From assembly GCA_016937215.1 (NCBI GenBank), contig JAFGWI010000019.1, positions 1 to 22,156 of the forward strand: a DNA stretch of 22,156 nt. Reading direction: 5' to 3'. The position numbers and the translations under genes were made by a program. Shown here one piece after another: positions 1,342 through 22,156 of the stretch. This DNA comes from Spirochaetales bacterium (GTDB lineage Bacteria > Spirochaetota > Spirochaetia > SZUA-6 > JAFGRV01). Positions within the stretch are counted from its first letter, which is position 1. The number at the start of each line of letters is the position of its first letter. The notes below the pieces were generated by a model that saw only the letters and a program-made list of their open reading frames with translations, ran no database searches and was not told the DNA's origin.

Positions 1342-1563
1342 CGAAGCTACTCTACTCGATGGAACTGTGTGCTGTCAAGCTTTCGTTAGTATTGCGGCAG
1401 GGCAAGGTTGTGAAATGGTTTCATGCCCTAATTAAGAGGTCTTGATGGATGTGTTGTCTCCGGGGTTAAAAACAGGGGCGGAACAAGGGGGTTGTGCGAG
1501 GGCTTTGGTTTTTGGCTTGAAAAAAAAGCACCTGGGTTTGAAGTGTTAGGGATAGGAGGCATG

Positions 1564-1735
1564 GCTTGCTATTTTTTCAAAAATGGCAAGCCAAAGCGTT
1601 TTATGCCGGATAATTTCCGGCATAAAACCTTCGGAGCGCCAGCGGAGTGCCGGATAGCCCGACCTGCCATGCCCCTGGGCGGCAGGTAACACCCAAAAAC
1701 AAGAGGAGGGCTGGCTTCTGGTTTCAACTTTTTTT
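1564..1735 (+). ncRNA. Candidate structured RNA/regulatory element, copy A (paralogue of 13279-13397)
   Basis: Hairpin gcttgc-N16-gcaagc (1564-1591) whose loop is the AT palindrome gctattttttcaaaaatggc. Hairpin atgccgg-ataattt-ccggcat (1603-1623). cttcgg (UUCG-type) followed by gagcgccagcggag (1629-1647). Hairpin cctgcc-N12-ggcagg (1663-1686). T7 run at 1729-1735. The first roughly 85 nt align nearly base-for-base with 13279-13365. Overlapping ORFs on both strands (1492..1689, 1546..1800) are judged spurious. Confidence 0.3.
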
Positions 1736-1902
1736 CCTTGCTGGAGAGTTGTAATATGGTTCTGTTTCCTTTTGTTCTGTAGCATGATTTGTCGCATCAT
1801 AATTATGCTGTAATTGATTAGTTTTAAGTTATAATGGGCCTTGATTTTGTTGGGATTCCCAAGGATTTATTTTGTTCATAACAAAGTTAAAGGAGAAAAG
1901 AT

Positions 1903-3246
1903 ATGAAAAAAACATTATTCTGCCTTATGCGGCCGGCGTTTTTATTTTTATTAGTGGTGATGATTTTGTTGTCCGCAATGGGCTGTGATGTGAGAAATGG
2001 GGCGGCTGAGGAAGGGCTTGGTGAAAAGGCTTTATTGGAACCCTTGGCTGTTATTGACCTGGGTGACCAAGGGGCTATCGAGTTTGTTGAGATTTCACCT
2101 GGTGAATTGGTTGTTGGCGCATTGCTGGGTTCTCCTGATGTTCAAATAAAGGGAATTGATGAATCTCCGCTGGCTGTTTACCGATTTTATACAGGCCAAG
2201 AGCCGCCAACTGAATTGCTGGCTGCTTATGAACGCAGCAAGGTTGCTCAGGCTTTGGATTCCGAGGTCACTGGTTCTGATAACCAGGTTATCCGTCAAGC
2301 TAGTTTGGCAGGCCAATCAAAAATGACGGCCAATGAATTTGAATCTGCCTATTTTAACGCGCCCAACATGAGCCAATATGATTATAAGGTGCTTTATAAA
2401 AATTCAACTGCTTTGTTCCGGACTATACAAAATTGTTTTACTCTTGGTATCCGGGTTTATTCCAGCCAGGGAACGGTCCGATTTAACCTGAAAACCAAAA
2501 TTGGAAGCAGCTGGTCAACTGAATATACCCGTGTTGTTCCTCAGGGAAGTACCTATTATGCTTATACTGGAGGAGTTTGGCGTTCCCGAATGGCGGAGGT
2601 TGTTGAGTCGGACAATGACATTTTCCAGGTAATGTATTTTGGAATGAAAAAAATTTTTGTTTGCGCGAGTTTTGGCGGAAGTTCCAGCACTGATATTCAT
2701 CCTGTTGTGGAAGAACAGGTAAAGGCCGAGGGGATTGTGTTCAATAGTAACAACTGGAATAAGAGTTCGGGTGATGGTGTGTGTTCAAGATCCGATGCTG
2801 ATCACGCGGCAGGAGTTATGAAAGACTGGGCTGCTTTGAATTCTCTGCCTCGGGCCAATATGAACCTTCTGGTTGTGGGTAAGAGCGCCGGAGGTGTCCG
2901 GGCCTGGTATGCTTTTAAACGGAATTTCGGGACACTTGATGATTTTAACAAAGTGGCACTGGTTTTTGTCGATCCCCATGGTTCAGCCCTTGGAGATGGT
3001 GAAGTTGGCACTTACAGCGACGATCAGAGCCTGACATGGCCATCATCCTGGTCCACCAACAAGAGCTTTTTCAGGGTCTATAATATTTATCAGCATTCAA
3101 ATGGATTAACAGGAGCCAGTTTTCCAAGTTCCAATGTTTATAAAAACATAAAAATTACCGGCAATAGTGTGAGTCATGATAATATTCCTGGCCGCCAGGA
3201 AACAAAGGATTTGATCAGAGAAGCTGTGAGGTTTTTAAAACCCTGA
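1903..3246 (+). CDS. Putative secreted lipoprotein, serine hydrolase (alpha/beta-hydrolase/lipase-esterase-like), 447 aa
   Basis: Signal peptide MKKTLFCLMRPAFLFLLVVMILLSAMGC with a Cys consistent with a lipobox. Nucleophile-elbow GxSxG motif in LLVVGKSAGGVRAWYAF, with downstream D and H candidates. SD-like aaaggagaaaag lies 5 nt before the ATG. Confidence 0.45.
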   Translation: MKKTLFCLMRPAFLFLLVVMILLSAMGCDVRNGAAEEGLGEKALLEPLAVIDLGDQGAIEFVEISPGELVVGALLGSPDVQIKGIDESPLAVYRFYTGQEPPTELLAAYERSKVAQALDSEVTGSDNQVIRQASLAGQSKMTANEFESAYFNAPNMSQYDYKVLYKNSTALFRTIQNCFTLGIRVYSSQGTVRFNLKTKIGSSWSTEYTRVVPQGSTYYAYTGGVWRSRMAEVVESDNDIFQVMYFGMKKIFVCASFGGSSSTDIHPVVEEQVKAEGIVFNSNNWNKSSGDGVCSRSDADHAAGVMKDWAALNSLPRANMNLLVVGKSAGGVRAWYAFKRNFGTLDDFNKVALVFVDPHGSALGDGEVGTYSDDQSLTWPSSWSTNKSFFRVYNIYQHSNGLTGASFPSSNVYKNIKITGNSVSHDNIPGRQETKDLIREAVRFLKP

Positions 3247-3277
3247 CAGAAATGCTTTGCATTTATTGCTTGGTGGA

Positions 3278-3389
3278 GTGAATTTTCATTGGCATTCACT
3301 TTTTGACGTGAATGCTCATTGGCATTCACTTTTTGACGTGAATGCTCATTGGCATTCACTTTTTGACGTGAATGCTCATTGGCATTCAC
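3278..3389. repeat. Tandem array of four 30-bp units, each carrying the palindrome GTGAATGC-TCATTG-GCATTCAC (REP-like); the first copy has a degenerate left arm (gtgaattt)
   Basis: Read directly from the sequence. Arms gtgaatgc at 3308, 3338 and 3368; arms gcattcac at 3292, 3322, 3352 and 3382; constant loop tcattg; constant inter-unit spacer tttttgac. A further degenerate palindrome aaatgctttgcattt sits at 3250-3264. The array lies between the stop of the hydrolase gene (3246) and its terminator hairpin (3435-3466), i.e. in its 3'UTR. ORFs 3257..3451 (+) and 3174..3506 (-) are translation artefacts of this repeat. Confidence 0.9.
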
Positions 3390-3434
3390 TTTTATCATGC
3401 CGTTATGCTGGAAAATATTGGGCAGAAAAGGCTT

Positions 3435-3480
3435 GGTTGTGCCTGTTATGAAAAATAGGCACAACCTGCTTTCTTTTTCG
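3435..3480 (+). terminator. Rho-independent terminator for the 1903-3246 gene
   Basis: Perfect 10-bp stem ggttgtgcct / aggcacaacc with a 12-nt loop, followed by tgctttctttttcg (T-rich tail). Confidence 0.55.
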
Positions 3481-3570
3481 AATGCATTCAAAAAAATAGC
3501 CCCCATTTAGCTAAACAAATACTTCACAGGCAGCTATAATCTGTAAAAATCATCGTTTTTAGAGCTATTT

Positions 3571-7359: not shown

Positions 7360-7501
7360 GCAATCAACTGGAGGCAAAATGTGATCCATGGCATTGAGTT
7401 GTTTGGGAATTTTTTGGGCGTTGCCTGATAAGCCCGGGACAACAATTCTATATTTGAGTACAAATATTACGAATTGCGAGTTATTTTACTTCGGTGCTGT
7501 G

Positions 7502-7590
7502 GCCATTCCAAATATAAACTATTATTAAGGCAGTTAAAAATCATCAGCTGTAATTAAATTGCATACAAAAAGGTTTATATTTGGAATGGC
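7502..7590. repeat. Perfect 18-bp inverted repeat gccattccaaatataaac / gtttatatttggaatggc separated by 53 AT-rich nt
   Basis: Read directly: 7502-7519 is the exact reverse complement of 7573-7590. Could be a stem-loop RNA or a MITE-like element. Confidence 0.85.
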
Positions 7591-7614
7591 TTAGCCGGGG
7601 GCTTTCAGGCTGCA

Positions 7615-7705
7615 GAAACTGTTGCATAACTATAATTAAGAGTATTTCAACTCGCCTACTGGGTCCATAATTGGTTTAGACGAGTTATTCATAGGCAACA
7701 GTTTC
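7615..7705. repeat. Second long-range inverted repeat gaaactgttgc(ataact) / (agttat)tcatag-gcaacagtttc enclosing about 70 nt
   Basis: 11-bp perfect arms at 7615-7625 and 7695-7705. A 6-bp extension (ataact/agttat) is interrupted by a 6-nt bulge. Confidence 0.6.
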
Positions 7706-7832
7706 GTATTTTAAGGTTGTGCAACAACCTCTGCATGGCCGAGCAACAAATCGAAGATTTGTGACAAGGCCCGCCACTTCGGCTTCGCCTTCGAAGGTTA
7801 AGGTGCGGAAGTTATCCGCCCCTTAACGCTTT

Positions 7833-7862
7833 GTTCGACTATTTTTGAAAAAATAGTCGAAC
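7833..7862. promoter_or_regulatory. Perfect 14+14 bp palindrome gttcgactattttt-ga-aaaaatagtcgaac about 120 bp upstream of the ABC operon
   Basis: Read directly. Flanked by near-direct repeats ccttaacgcttt (7821-7832) and ccctaacgctttt (7875-7887). The AT-rich centre ctatttttgaaaaaatag is nearly the reverse complement of the palindrome at the head of element A (1568-1587). Candidate protein operator or element boundary. Confidence 0.5.
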
Positions 7863-7982
7863 ATGGCTTCAATCCCTAACGCTTTTAGCCGGGGTGCTGT
7901 TATTGGCTAGAGAGGCAGGAAGCATATATTCCGCTGACTTGCTTCCATCAAGGAAATCATAGATTTGGAAAAGGAGAGAACG

Positions 7983-13233: not shown

Positions 13234-13278
13234 ATTGGCTATTGTGCTGAATGTGTTAGTGATTGGAGCTGTGAGGAG

Positions 13279-13397
13279 GTTTTTTTCAAAAAACCGACGA
13301 AAAGCTTTTTGCCGCGTTTTTAGCGGCAAAAACTTCGGAGCGAAAGCGGAGCAGTGGAATGAACGGCCCCGGAAGGGTGTTTTTGTGCCGGTTTTTT
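13279..13397 (+). ncRNA. Candidate structured RNA/regulatory element, copy B (paralogue of 1564-1735)
   Basis: Palindrome ggttttttt-c-aaaaaacc (13279-13296). Hairpin ttgccgc-gttttta-gcggcaa (13309-13329). cttcgg + agcgaaagcggag (13333-13351). T6 run at 13392-13397. Same order and spacing as copy A, with compensatory changes in the 7-bp hairpin. Confidence 0.3.
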
Positions 13398-16482: not shown

Positions 16483-17499
16483 TCAAGGTTTGTAAACCTG
16501 TGCTGAGTTTTCAGCCCCGAAGCTGGCCTCCCGTGAGGCGCAAATCATCCAGTCCTCTGCCGAGTTGGAGTCGCTGCTGCCCGGAATACGGCCCATGGAA
16601 CGTGTGGCTGTTGAATCATCGGGGTTAATGGCATCTTCGGGCCGAATTTCCGTGCTTCCCGATGCCCAGCCATGCTGTTTAAACAATTCTTCGGCCCTTT
16701 CCATGGTTTTGAGGCTGCCAAAGCCGCGGTATTTTTCATCAGACTGGCTCGTGCGGTTTGAATAGACAAGGCCGTCTATCAGCTCGCCTTGGGGAGAGCT
16801 GTACAAGCTAAGGACACCATTATTGGCGCTTAGTCCTGTGCCCTGGGGCAGCCAGAAATCGTAGGCCTGGTGTGAAGAGTCATAACCCTGTGATATTTCG
16901 GGGCTTTGGATTTCGTTTATTTCTTCGGGGATTCCCTGGGGTTTGGTGTGTAACAGCAGGAAATCGTTGGCTAGAAGTTCCATTGCCGGGAAAACAAAGC
17001 GTTGGTCCCAGTTGTTTCGGGTTCCTTCAAAAAAACAGAGCCCGCCGATATTTCCCGCTTCGAGCAAGCGAATTTCCACCAGATCGGGGTGGGTCGAGCT
17101 GCCCTGGGTCGTGAATTCATTAATCAGGGCTTTGGGGAGCCTGGGATTATAGCCGTAAAAAGCGGCAAGAAGGTCCTGGCTGTTGCCTTGAACGTCATTA
17201 ACCCTGAGGCGCAGAGTGTATTCCTGGCCGGGTATTTGCCCGGTAGTGCTGATGGTCACTGATTGCTTCTCCATCTCTATGCCACTCACTTCGAGTTCCG
17301 GCTCAAAGCTGATATCTTCAGCTGTTAGTTCAATGTTTTCGTCAAAGCTCAGAGTCAGCCCTTTGGGGCTGTTGGAAAAATCCTGGAGCTGGGGAGGGTT
17401 CAGGTCCACCTTTGCCTCGGAGGTTTCAAAGGGCGGGGGAGTGCAGCAGGCCAGAAAGGCCGCTGTGAGGATGTAAATAAGGGTGCTTTTTTGAATCAT
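16483..17499 (-). CDS. Lipoprotein with lamin-tail-domain (LTD)-like segment, 338 aa
   Basis: Lipobox LTAAFLACC. The segment ALINEFTTQGSSTHPDLVEIRLLEAGNIGGL matches the LTD hallmark (INE...dewVEl.N). Pro/Ser-rich linker after the lipobox. Confidence 0.5.
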   Translation of the reverse strand: MIQKSTLIYILTAAFLACCTPPPFETSEAKVDLNPPQLQDFSNSPKGLTLSFDENIELTAEDISFEPELEVSGIEMEKQSVTISTTGQIPGQEYTLRLRVNDVQGNSQDLLAAFYGYNPRLPKALINEFTTQGSSTHPDLVEIRLLEAGNIGGLCFFEGTRNNWDQRFVFPAMELLANDFLLLHTKPQGIPEEINEIQSPEISQGYDSSHQAYDFWLPQGTGLSANNGVLSLYSSPQGELIDGLVYSNRTSQSDEKYRGFGSLKTMERAEELFKQHGWASGSTEIRPEDAINPDDSTATRSMGRIPGSSDSNSAEDWMICASREASFGAENSAQVYKP

Positions 17500-17686
17500 G
17501 GGTGACTCCTTGTGCTATAAAGTGGCTTTAAAAGCCCTGTTTTTTTGCTGACCCCTTCTCTGAGCCAGGCAGCTGGTTTTCAATCCCCTAGGGAATAGGA
17601 AGCAGGCAAGCTTGTTTTTCAAAACAAACGCAGCCAGCAACAACCATGCTGGCCAAAGCTGACAAGCGCAATCAGGCTGCATGGAT

Positions 17687-17744
17687 ATAGTGAATCCCAA
17701 TGAGGATTCACGTGGACATAGTGAATCCCAATGAGGATTCACGT
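17687..17744. repeat. Two tandem 27-bp units (31-bp period) each containing the palindrome GTGAATCC-CAATGA-GGATTCAC
   Basis: Read directly. atagtgaatcccaatgaggattcacgt appears at 17687-17713 and again at 17718-17744. Read on the minus strand it is GTGAATCC-TCATTG-GGATTCAC, the same loop and arm family as the 3278-3389 array. Located in the divergent region between the LTD lipoprotein gene and the Crp/Fnr-like gene. Confidence 0.85.
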
Positions 17745-18082
17745 CACCGAGCAGGAAAGGCGAAGCATTAATGACCAGAGGTCGTAAAACCCTAAAAAAA
17801 CAAAAGTGATTTTCCCGTTGAAAAAAGGCTTCTCAGTGCCAAAAGATTTTAATGCACTATTCCGATAATCATCAGGGGTCCAAGGGTTTTCACTTTGCCG
17901 TTCCCATAAGTATTAATACCCTTGAAATGTCATCCTGCTTTGGGTTTTTTTTATCTTTTTTGTCTACTTTTTTTAAAAAAGCTGAGTTACATTGTAAAAG
18001 GCTTTGAAAGATATTTTTTTCGTTACCATTGCTGCTTGTATTGGTTATAGGGTAAAATCCCCAAAAGAAAGAGGAGTTTTAA

Positions 18083-18703
18083 ATGTCTGATCCAACCTTG
18101 TTCAAGAATTTTGGTCTTCAAGTGCCCAAGGGTGAAACCATTTTCAAAGAAAATGAAGAAGGCAGTAAAATGTACATCATTCAGGAAGGAAAAGTCAGGA
18201 TTTCCAAGAATATCCACGGCAAGGAACATGAACTGGCGGTTTTGATCAAGGGTGAGTTTTTCGGCGAAATGGCCATTGTGACCCAGGAAAAGCGAACGGC
18301 CAGTGCCTCGGCCCTGGAGGATACTTCGCTTCTTTCCTTTGACCGCGAGGGCTTTGCCAGCATGATCAACAAGAACGCCAAAATCGCCTTGAACATTATT
18401 GAAAAACTTTGCCGGCGCTTGCAGGCAGCCAATCAGCAGATCAAGGCCATGGCTCCGCGGAACCTAAAAGGGATGATCGCCCTGAGCCTGTACTATGACT
18501 TTAAAAATGCCGACGGCAAAATGGTCTCCTATTCCAAAAGCCTTGAGGAGATATCCCTGAACCTTCAGCTGCCCTTGCAGGATATCAAGGATCAGGTGGA
18601 AGGAATGATCAAAAGCGGGATTTTAAAGCTGGAGAATGACCAACTGATTCTGCTGAACAGCCCTGGCCTGGATGACATCGCCGACGATGTTGTTAAACGA
18701 TAA
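18083..18703 (+). CDS. Crp/Fnr-family regulator (cNMP-binding domain plus C-terminal winged-helix-like region), 206 aa
   Basis: cNMP-binding beta-roll: YIIQEGKVRISKNIHGKEHELAVLIKGEFFGEMAI...RTASASALEDTSLL. C-terminal SLEEISLNLQLPLQDIKDQVEGMIKSGIL resembles an HTH. AGAGGAG SD 8 nt before the ATG. Confidence 0.65.
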   Translation: MSDPTLFKNFGLQVPKGETIFKENEEGSKMYIIQEGKVRISKNIHGKEHELAVLIKGEFFGEMAIVTQEKRTASASALEDTSLLSFDREGFASMINKNAKIALNIIEKLCRRLQAANQQIKAMAPRNLKGMIALSLYYDFKNADGKMVSYSKSLEEISLNLQLPLQDIKDQVEGMIKSGILKLENDQLILLNSPGLDDIADDVVKR

Positions 18704-21094: not shown

Positions 21095-22156
21095 TTAGTT
21101 ATTCATCATAGTAGCGCAAAAAACGATAAAATTTTGAGCCGGGTATTCGATCCCATTTATTGTAACGGTCCCAACAGCTGTATCTGTGTAGATAGTATCA
21201 CTCGTAACATCATAATTAGCCACAATCGTTGAAATGGTCGTTGAGTCAAAAGTAATAACCAAATTTGCGGTTATGGTTCTGGTCGTGTCTTCATTAAAGG
21301 TTTCTGAAAGTGTTCCGTTTACTGAAAATGGATGTGGTGAAGTTGGTAAGGGTGTATTTGTGAATGTTGTTATTTGTCCATTATCAGAGATGGGTGTTTT
21401 CTCAATGGTGGGATCCTGATCTCCAGCAGCCCAGCTGAGCATCATTGCTGTGAATAAAAAATTATATCCTATTTCTTCATTGTCTATTTCAGGATCTGGT
21501 GTTACTTCAGGGTCGTTTGAAATATTTTGAATCAAATAAGTATAAAATGCCTGAGCGTTTATTTCAACATCGTTTATAATAATTGTACCGACTGCAATAG
21601 GATCGGCTATGTTCGAATTGTCATAATCAAATGACCCGTTGATTGTGAATAAATTGGGGTCATTGGTGAAAATGAAATTGAAAGTTATATTTCCGTTTAT
21701 TTCTGTGCCAGTTGATAATAAATTTCCGCTTGCCTTATAATCTGGTTCTTCTGAATTGTATACAGCATTATTTAAAGTTGCATTCATCACGCCATCACTA
21801 TTGCTAGCTGAAACTGTTGTGCCATCAGGGTCAGTGATCTGTCGATAAAGATTTGTGCATACCTCATAAGCATATAATTCTGTTTCTTCATTTAACACCG
21901 GGATTTCAGTTACTTCAGGTTCCGGTGTCACTTCAGGTTCCGGTGTCACTTCAGGTTCTGGTGTCACTTCAGGTTCTGGTGTCACTTCAGGTTCTGGTGT
22001 CACTTCAGGTTCCGGTGTCACTTCAGGTTCTGGTGTCACTTCAGGTTCCGGTGTTACTTCAGGTTCCGGTGTTACTTCAGGTTCCGGTGTTACTTCAGGT
22101 TCCGGTGTTACTTCAGGTTCCGGTGTTACTTCAGGTTCTGGTGTTACTTCAGGTTC
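21095..22156 (-). CDS. Secreted/surface repeat protein, 5'-truncated by the window edge: N-terminal (TPEPEV)n linker then two related Thr/Asn/Ile-rich beta-type domains
   Basis: The reading frame is open to the end of the window. The M at 22039 in the ORF track is a GTG (Val) codon inside the repeat, not a start. The C-terminal part contains an internal duplication ([22 protein letters not shown] vs [22 protein letters not shown]). Confidence 0.7.
21911..22156. repeat. At least 13 tandem copies of the 18-bp unit ggttcYggtgtYacttca (encoding TPEPEV on the minus strand), continuing past the window end
   Basis: Read directly. Units differ only at two Y positions, which fall on third codon positions (ccg/cca Pro, gtg/gta Val). 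Confidence 0.9.

Follow-up and report, generated by a model that had tools for sequence, protein, structure and literature searches.

A tandem hairpin array in an uncultured Spirochaetales genome as the probable inner module of a mosaic interspersed repeat

Among the described families of small interspersed bacterial repeats, the BOX elements found in Streptococcus pneumoniae and S. suis consist of two end modules, boxA and boxC, which enclose a tandem array of boxB units whose number differs between strains (PMC3049150). A second family is formed by REP (repetitive extragenic palindromic) elements of Enterobacteria and Pseudomonas, together with the bacterial interspersed mosaic elements (BIMEs) and the REP-associated tyrosine transposase (RAYT) (PMC3333891, PMC3337134). 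Here, we analyse a repeat in the window, i.e. one whole contig of 22,156 bp (JAFGWI010000019.1) from a metagenome-assembled genome (MAG) of an uncultured Spirochaetales bacterium, whose genes carry JXR70_ locus tags. The window contains a tandem array of palindromes at 3278-3393 (array 1), and we consider it likely that this array arose by tandem amplification of the inner module of a mosaic interspersed repeat, one that is non-coding and specific to its lineage. The family is undescribed and of an ordinary, well-known bacterial kind, like pneumococcal BOX and E. coli REP/BIME, and its best analogue is the A-B(n)-C architecture of BOX.

Tandem Repeats Finder describes array 1 with a period of 30 bp, 3.9 copies and 97% matches. 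Four units, all head-to-tail, start at 3278, 3308, 3338 and 3368 (Table 1), and the bases 3' of the last unit are TTTTATCATGC / TTTTATCA in place of the spacer TTTTTGAC. The original prediction of four 30-bp units with perfect 8-bp stems thus holds for the tandem arrangement and for units 2-4, but not for unit 1, which has two mismatches and a much weaker fold. A perfect unit folds with nine pairs, the ninth (U-G, in the TCATTG orientation) closing a CAUU tetraloop. At -10.7 kcal/mol for each of units 2-4, a transcript of the array would form the stacked hairpins that had been proposed, and the alternative register, in which neighbouring units pair with each other, is indeed used in the minimum-free-energy fold of the region, where it appears as nested inter-unit helices. 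A second site with a G/C swap had also been reported and was confirmed. Here, Tandem Repeats Finder detects two copies of a 31-bp unit at 17682-17744 (array 2), and the units, GTGAATCC-CAATGA-GGATTCAC, are the array 1 element in reverse orientation with the pair at stem position 7 swapped from G:C to C:G, such that pairing is retained. In total, six pattern matches are present in the window, compared to 0.03 expected from shuffles.

The palindromes are not free-standing REP sequences. When array 2 is reverse-complemented, the repeat finder shows that its similarity to array 1 extends past the palindromes, and an alignment of three DNA copies (array 1, array 2 and a copy on the Logan contig L042), together with a hidden Markov model (HMM) search using the 3' part, defined a mosaic element of ~160-250 nt of which the palindrome unit is the repeatable inner module. 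In the TCATTG orientation, this element begins with a 5' segment of ~50 nt (F5) that contains a small hairpin (H0). One to four units follow, each a 22-bp palindrome with an A/T-rich spacer of 8-9 nt on its 3' side, and then a linker with the consensus T.TAT.CATGCAGCC, a hairpin H2 (GCCGGAAA..TTTCCGGC), the sequence AGAAAAGGC, and a hairpin H3, in which a variable GC-rich outer stem surrounds ATTTTT-GAAA-AAAAT. The element closes with a pyrimidine-rich tail ending in ..TCCCTAAC (CCCTAAC). Around array 1, the homology covers ~48 nt upstream and ~95 nt downstream. The local alignment of F5 reaches a score of 29, versus 14.2 +/- 2.2 in 2000 shuffles (0/2000 reach 29), and the bases past the last unit also agree between the two arrays (TTTTATC-ATGC versus TATATCCATGC).

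The 3' part of the element, H2-H3-tail, was found by nhmmer five times in the window, at 3396-3489 (+), 17586-17683 (-), 1540-1630 (-), 7795-7886 (+) and 13250-13326 (-), and twice in the 4.8-kb contig L042. Three of the window copies have no units and share a distinct upstream segment, CACT.CG...CGAAGGTTTT (segment X in Table 1), and at least two kinds of 5' flank occur among the translated copies discussed below, and the family is therefore a mosaic. From copy 2 and from 7775-7882, we had read long terminal inverted repeats by eye, in the form of an inverted H2-H3 at the 5' end, but this was rejected for lack of nhmmer support: the 3' module gave no match at E below 0.1 in the regions upstream of five copies.

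This anatomy changes how the surroundings of array 1 are to be understood. The array lies in the gap between two convergent genes, flanked on one side by the stop codon of a 447-aa gene (3244-3246) and on the other by a hairpin of 13 bp that is followed by a T-run (3435-3466). Its placement between a stop codon and an intrinsic terminator had been correctly noted; however, the hairpin that looks like the gene's own terminator is the H3 of the repeat, which is present in seven copies. At the other end, F5 overlaps the final codons and the stop codon of the same gene.

Table 1. Features of the repeat family in the window, with position, strand and basis or remark.
Feature	Position	Strand	Basis or remark
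F5 of copy 1, including H0 AAATGC-TTT-GCATTT (3250-3264)	3228-3277	+	homologous to 17743-17792 (-) and L042
Unit 1, degenerate: GTGAATTT-TCATTG-GCATTCAC	3278-3299	+	2 mismatches, left arm GTGAATTT; -2.3 kcal/mol alone
Units 2-4, perfect 22-bp palindromes: GTGAATGC-TCATTG-GCATTCAC	3308-3329, 3338-3359, 3368-3389	+	-10.7 kcal/mol each
Array 1 spacers TTTTTGAC (n=3)	3300-3307, 3330-3337, 3360-3367	+	sequence reading
Linker of copy 1, TTTTATCATGCCGTTAT	3390-3406	+	repeat finder, alignment, HMM search
H2 of copy 1, weak version, GCTGGAAAATATTGGGCAG	3407-3425	+	HMM search, covariation
H3 of copy 1 (3435-3466, 13 bp) and T-rich tail	3435-3489	+	apparent terminator of convergent genes
Spurious open reading frame over array 1, units as (QKVNANEHSR)n	3177-3506	-	GenBank JXR70_01345, 105 aa, internal start
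Copy 2, full module	17585-17792	-	F5 17743-17792 (H0 17756-17770); tail to 17585
Copy 2 units, CC variant, 31-bp period	17721-17742, 17690-17711	-	sequence reading, pattern match
Copy 2 3' parts: linker, H2, H3	17668-17689, 17633-17653, 17610-17631	-	alignment, nhmmer
Unit-less copy: segment X, H2 1604-1622, H3 1563-1592, CCCTAAC tail	1543-1649	-	nhmmer E = 1.9e-22
Unit-less copy: segment X, H2 7802-7820, H3 7833-7862, CCCTAACGC tail	7775-7882	+	nhmmer E = 1.1e-19
Unit-less diverged copy: segment X, H2 13311-13327 (stem GCCGC/GCGGC), H3 13278-13295, CACTAAC tail	13253-13356	-	nhmmer E = 5e-4; fits covarying structure

The dispersal of the family was followed with an unusual probe, a spurious minus-strand open reading frame (ORF) of 110 codons over array 1 (3177-3506), which is possible since the 30-bp period keeps the frame open. 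An exhaustive HMMER search with this pseudo-ORF against 1.84 billion proteins returned itself and five proteins of 50-63 aa, which contain two or three copies of the array decapeptide and alignable flanks, i.e. they are translations of other copies of the repeat. A profile search extended the set to 16 proteins, 15 of them JXR70_ 'hypothetical proteins' and one located on L042 (SRR13394436), a contig that yielded the third full DNA copy, with two units. One of the 15 is the window's own JXR70_01345, whereas the remaining fourteen belong to further contigs of this MAG. The motif, whose absence elsewhere was to have spoken for a mere local duplication, thus occurs at at least 16 further unit-bearing loci in the same genome (14 on other MAG contigs and two on L042).

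Outside this genome, the HMMER search of the 1.84 billion proteins and the profile search gave 0 matches in other organisms. At the DNA level, the pattern GTGAATNNTCATTGNNATTCAC had 16 hits in 185,579 GTDB species genomes and 19 in JGI metagenomes, all of them single, with non-complementary NN and unrelated flanks, and we regard them as chance; a scan of viral contigs with the DNA pattern gave 0 hits. Rfam had nothing at the gathering threshold and sub-threshold noise alone at a relaxed threshold.

All readable copies are intergenic, and the element, though multi-copy, takes all orientations relative to the neighbouring genes: copies were found 3' of genes, 5' of genes and, in one case, antisense between tandem genes, and the neighbours are functionally unrelated. 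In the window, copies are held by 5 of the ~9 sizeable intergenic gaps, a density that is biased, as the window was picked for its arrays. In the sequence seen, there is approximately one copy per 4-5 kb. All Logan contigs (k=31) that reach array 1 or 2 (L017, L037, L038, L043 and L044; SRR13394436/7) end inside the array, which shows that the arrays break short-k assemblies in both samples.

Thirty-seven units could be read from the 16 pseudo-proteins, and the loop codons translate as NE in 34 of them. At stem positions 7 and 16, 30 of the 37 units have G or C at both, and these are paired in 27 cases (G:C in 18, C:G in 9) and unpaired in 3, a covariation that is significant by Fisher's test (p = 3.5e-5) and remains so with a single count of each unit type per locus (p = 0.002). 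G:C and C:G variants as well as hybrid units coexist inside single arrays, and this mix suggests exchange between units. Similarly, H2 and H3 have standard pairs in 88% of cells across the seven copies, with two-sided changes at 11 of the 17 pairs. In 500 shuffles these values were never reached, and pairing fell to 40-52% once the partner was shifted by 1-3 columns. Since the stems change while their pairing is kept, what counts is how a single strand folds, be it ssDNA or RNA, and not a coding frame or a protein-binding duplex. G-T and A-C mismatches were found on both strands and point to neither in particular.

The loop also provides an observation of its own. At L042 386-407, there is a diverged single unit, GAGAATAC-CAATAA-GCATTCTC, whose change at stem position 2 is compensated (T:A to A:T) and whose loop is flipped relative to its own linker-H2-H3. 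The loop therefore can invert within the palindrome.

As judged from the sequence, the family is non-coding, and the ORFs annotated in it are almost certainly not real proteins. Substitutions between array 1 and the L042 copy are spread evenly over codon positions 1, 2 and 3 (9/9/10). Copy 2 has stop codons in the pseudo-ORF frame, and its 31-bp period breaks that frame; moreover, the starts and stops of the pseudo-ORFs vary among copies. Other long ORFs also run over repeat copies, in the window at 1546-1800 (-) and 17515-17742 (-) and on L042 at 282-542 and 2408-2569. The family has inflated the GenBank annotation by at least 15 false 'hypothetical proteins'.

The spacers hold information on how the arrays have formed. 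In each DNA copy, the start of the spacer copies the locus' own 3' linker (array 1, TTTT/TGAC versus TTTTATC; array 2, TATGTCC/AC versus TATATCC; L042, TGTAT/TTC versus TGTATAC), and its end repeats the end of F5. The same match between spacer and linker is seen in the translations (MYK/RYK, MYI/RYI). Because the spacers match their own flanks, we propose that arrays grow in place, by duplication of a unit along with some of the bases beside it. Of the three DNA copies, two (array 1 and L042) have a degenerate unit adjoining F5, as is typical of the edges of arrays. Loci have one, two, three or four units, and the spacers elsewhere are TATTTGAC (the commonest), TATATGAC, TGTATTTC and TATGTCCAC. 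Most arrays in the genome share a spacer end of ...TGAC, so that the 30-bp unit probably is older than many of its copies. We had taken the 30- and 31-bp junctions as proof of two wholly independent duplications from a single-unit ancestor, but given this shared end, that claim had to be softened.

These properties correspond closely to those of BOX. In both cases, a composite intergenic repeat of a single lineage has conserved end modules (here F5 and linker-H2-H3) around a variable tandem inner module that folds largely alone, and its copies often are mis-annotated as small ORFs (PMC3049150). The mosaic character, too, has a parallel in S. suis, where one inner module is joined to different end modules; in the present family, at least two kinds of 5' flank are seen, and H2-H3 occurs with or without units. 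The two families differ in that the inner unit described here has 30 bp with a perfect hairpin of 8-9 bp, whereas boxB has 45 nt, and in that the end modules of BOX pair with each other (PMC3049150), whereas this element has no terminal inverted repeat. Furthermore, this family has a spirochaete host and BOX a Firmicute one, and the likeness is one of architecture, Rfam giving no match.

The family is best viewed as a non-autonomous (selfish) repeat with its hairpins as the essential trait, and it would have been dispersed by an enzyme whose gene lies elsewhere, while unit number would shift locally through replication slippage or unequal exchange among near-identical palindromes, as with boxB. 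At array 1, the three units of hairpin plus U5 and the H3 with its U-run would, as a side effect, work as stacked partial terminators and shield the lipoprotein mRNA from 3' exonucleases, by analogy with REP arrays (bioRxiv 10.64898/2026.03.23.713779), and the same structure may buffer the convergent LigT-RecO transcript. A terminator scan flagged each of units 2-4 as a hairpin with a T-run. However, the U5 after the hairpin is limited to array 1 and the T-run of H3 to copy 1, which argues that termination is not a conserved property of the family. The units therefore are not conserved intrinsic terminators: the hairpin plus T5 is found in array 1 only, and other arrays have TATGTCCAC, TGTATTTC, TATTTGAC etc. 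after the hairpin.

Several points weigh against a mobile mosaic repeat as the explanation. We detected neither an empty site nor a terminal inverted repeat nor a transposase, and no target-site duplication could be called, the ends of the element being too diverged for this in the three full DNA copies. These three are the only full copies readable as DNA, the other 14 loci being known from their translations. The role of array 1 as a terminator or stabiliser would be one by analogy. Finally, identity between loci amounts to 86-95% in the units, 60-69% in F5 and ~52% in the 3' part, a difference that is partly due to ascertainment, as most loci had been detected via their conserved units; if it is real, it would point to a function for the host and not to pure selfishness.

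With respect to the alternatives, the family could be a true REP/REPIN system, in which the palindromes would be ssDNA substrates of a RAYT (TnpA-REP, a Y1 HUH enzyme) encoded elsewhere, and both their spread and the building of arrays would occur by strand transfer. The likeness is considerable. REP sequences also are short extragenic palindromes that occur about once per few kb, form mosaics of hairpins and specific linkers that sometimes are tandemly amplified, lie at 3' ends and between convergent genes, and show compensated stem changes (PMC3333891, PMC3337134). Their local effects are likely to be partial termination and protection of mRNA (bioRxiv 10.64898/2026.03.23.713779). Here, too, the palindromes are intergenic, dispersed and dense, and a hairpin kept by covariation is what structure-specific recognition of ssDNA would predict. 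In addition, one pseudo-ORF, P0026, appears from its translation to cover two modules head to head, and in vitro, TnpA-REP is able to build BIMEs in tandem (PMC3333891). However, four defining features of REP (PMC3333891) are missing. The 5' GTAG is absent, the bases there being TGAC, GGTGGA, GGTGAC, GCTGTC or TTTC. TnpA-REP requires a mismatch in the stem and leaves a perfected palindrome uncleaved (PMC3333891), whereas the canonical stems here are perfect (8 bp plus U-G). The units have 22 nt instead of 30-40, and within arrays they are direct repeats with the same loop orientation, not REP/iREP pairs. Moreover, no Y1 transposase or other transposase family was found among the scanned ORFs of the window. 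We thus consider a true REP system unlikely. The original designation as a REP-like family can be kept in the broad sense of dispersed palindromes, with at least 16 further loci, but not by the strict features of GTAG, mismatch, length and inverted pairs.

It could also be argued that the element is a structured RNA module selected by the host, i.e. a multi-copy element of untranslated regions (UTRs) or a family of small RNAs, whose repeated hairpin loops would define transcript ends or else serve to bind or titrate an RNA-binding protein. This would explain why the units and their loop are near-invariant (NE in 34/37) while the flanks have drifted to 52-69% identity, and why H2 and H3 co-vary. 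Copies 1 and 2 also have a terminator-like hairpin 3' of the array and in the same orientation, the orientation of six of seven copies agrees with that of an adjacent gene, and in E. coli, REP arrays partially terminate transcription and stabilise mRNA (bioRxiv 10.64898/2026.03.23.713779). Yet co-orientation is automatic in convergent and divergent gaps, and the two informative tandem gaps are split into one sense and one antisense case. The U-run after the unit is unconserved, the loop of one unit is flipped relative to its own flanks, and the balance of G-U and A-C mismatches favours no single strand. The neighbouring genes are unrelated in function, Rfam offers no match, and in the searches made, no relative carrying the element appeared outside this genome. 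Together, this makes a host-selected RNA improbable in our view.

A further idea is that this lineage has a dedicated protein which recognises the near-invariant hairpin, with its fixed loop and stem sequence, as a single strand, and that the recurrent amplification of the hairpin in place to 2-4 copies is selected and not accidental. Such a protein could be a new hairpin-specific HUH enzyme, or another ssDNA enzyme, that spreads the element and builds the arrays, or it could be an RNA-binding protein. We regard this only as a speculative scenario with a small chance of being correct.

The regular phasing had led to the suggestion of a same-face protein-binding array, in which each palindrome would be a duplex-DNA operator for a dimeric regulator, e.g. 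the cyclic nucleotide monophosphate (cNMP)-binding protein encoded at 18083-18703, with the 30-31-bp phasing placing the sites on one face. Compatible with this are the perfect dyad symmetry, the regular spacing and the fact that copy 2 lies upstream of the cNMP-binding gene, in a divergent gap. Nevertheless, it is disfavoured by the covariation of positions 7 and 16 from G:C to C:G, a signature of pairing that is unlike a contacted or a free position of a symmetric site. By our own arithmetic, 30 bp correspond to 2.86 turns and hence are out of phase. The half-site spacing of GTGA-N14-TCAC is unlike that of CRP (TGTGA-N6-TCACA) or FNR boxes. At the Pfam threshold used, the regulator has a cNMP-binding domain only and no helix-turn-helix, and the copies lie at 3' ends, in 5' regions and in antisense positions by unrelated genes. 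An operator array therefore is very unlikely.

That the array ORFs are real small proteins, forming a 16-member paralogous family with a VNANEHSRQx decapeptide repeat, can practically be dismissed: while 15 GenBank 'hypothetical proteins' have alignable N- and C-terminal parts, the differences are even over codon positions (9/9/10), starts and stops are unconserved, copy 2 has in-frame stops, changes inside the 'codons' are compensated on the palindrome's other arm, two covarying hairpins, in reverse complement, make up the 'N-terminal domain', and no homologues outside this genome were found in the searches made.

Further known systems can be set apart. The array had been held not to be a clustered regularly interspaced short palindromic repeat (CRISPR) locus, and this is borne out by its spacers, which have 8-9 bp and are identical or nearly so within an array, as opposed to unique spacers of ~26-72 bp. 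H3 resembles SPRITE, a pneumococcal repeat that is like a Rho-independent terminator (PMC3049150), in being a dispersed long hairpin, with a T-rich tail and a position between convergent genes in copy 1, where it may have been co-opted as a terminator. Unlike SPRITE, however, H3 is followed in 5 of 7 copies by a C/T-mixed tail (..TCCCTAAC) and not by a U-tract, and copies also lie upstream of genes. Borrelia offers a case from the spirochaetes, with dispersed transposon-type hairpins that directly follow lipoprotein genes and overlap their last codons, and that likewise show compensatory and G-U changes; they differ in having a bulged T and a known parent insertion sequence, and in being single instead of tandem. 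Comparison by eye gave no convincing match to CsrA-type GGA loops, parS, matS, SlmA, Fur/Rex/CRP boxes, dif/lox-type recombinase sites or attC.

The gene content of the window is that of an ordinary chromosome (RecO, LigT, GntR, Band-7, a MacB/LolA-like ABC system, DUF5312, QueG-like, MnmA and the cNMP-binding protein). Array 1 has as its neighbours the 447-aa gene upstream and LigT downstream on the opposite strand. The product of the upstream gene had been called a hydrolase-lipoprotein. It plausibly carries a lipoprotein signal, and it is without a Pfam family in the Pfam scan, so that none backs the 'hydrolase' part. Its relatives in a sister MAG (P0002) and on a JGI contig (P0003) are non-syntenic, and tandem repeats and matches to the module are absent there. 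Array 2 lies in a divergent gap between the genes for a 338-aa lipoprotein and the cNMP-binding protein. For the 338-aa lipoprotein gene (16483-17499, -), which is downstream of array 2, there is a precomputed hit to PF26342 (TP_1001_2nd, the Treponema pallidum TP_1001 domain), and our own Pfam scan (E <= 0.001) lists none. Upstream of copy 2, TTGGCACTGAGAAGCC at 17836-17850 (-) resembles a sigma-54 -24/-12 element with a spacing one base short, and it probably is there by chance.

Some other sequence features of the window may be mentioned. Just past H3 of copy 1, between runs of T5 and A7, GAATGCATTC at 3481-3490 is a loop-less 10-bp palindrome of the inner arm bases of the unit (GAATGC/GCATTC), which could be a collapsed unit or chance. 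The 600-nt intergenic gap at 7360-7964 is dense in hairpins. It contains an inverted repeat at 7502-7590 (37-nt arms, 78% complementary) and, beside the unit-less copy at 7775-7882, an inverted piece resembling F5/H0 at ~7731-7765. At 21912-22156, an 18-bp tandem repeat of 13.6 copies encodes a Pro/Glu-rich (EPEVTP)n sequence and runs into the contig end, which falls inside the repeat; its ORF, on the minus strand from ~21095 and off the contig end, has no Pfam match.

Small interspersed hairpin repeats affect transcript ends, mRNA stability and genome rearrangement, and work on them has been almost confined to Proteobacteria and Firmicutes. The family described here shows the same design, end modules with an amplifiable inner hairpin, in an uncultured spirochaete. 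Its arrays would lend themselves to use as natural markers of variable length. A dedicated enzyme or binding protein, should there be one, would have its handle in the perfectly conserved hairpin, and in the case of an RNA-binding protein, the arrays would be multivalent landing pads in UTRs.

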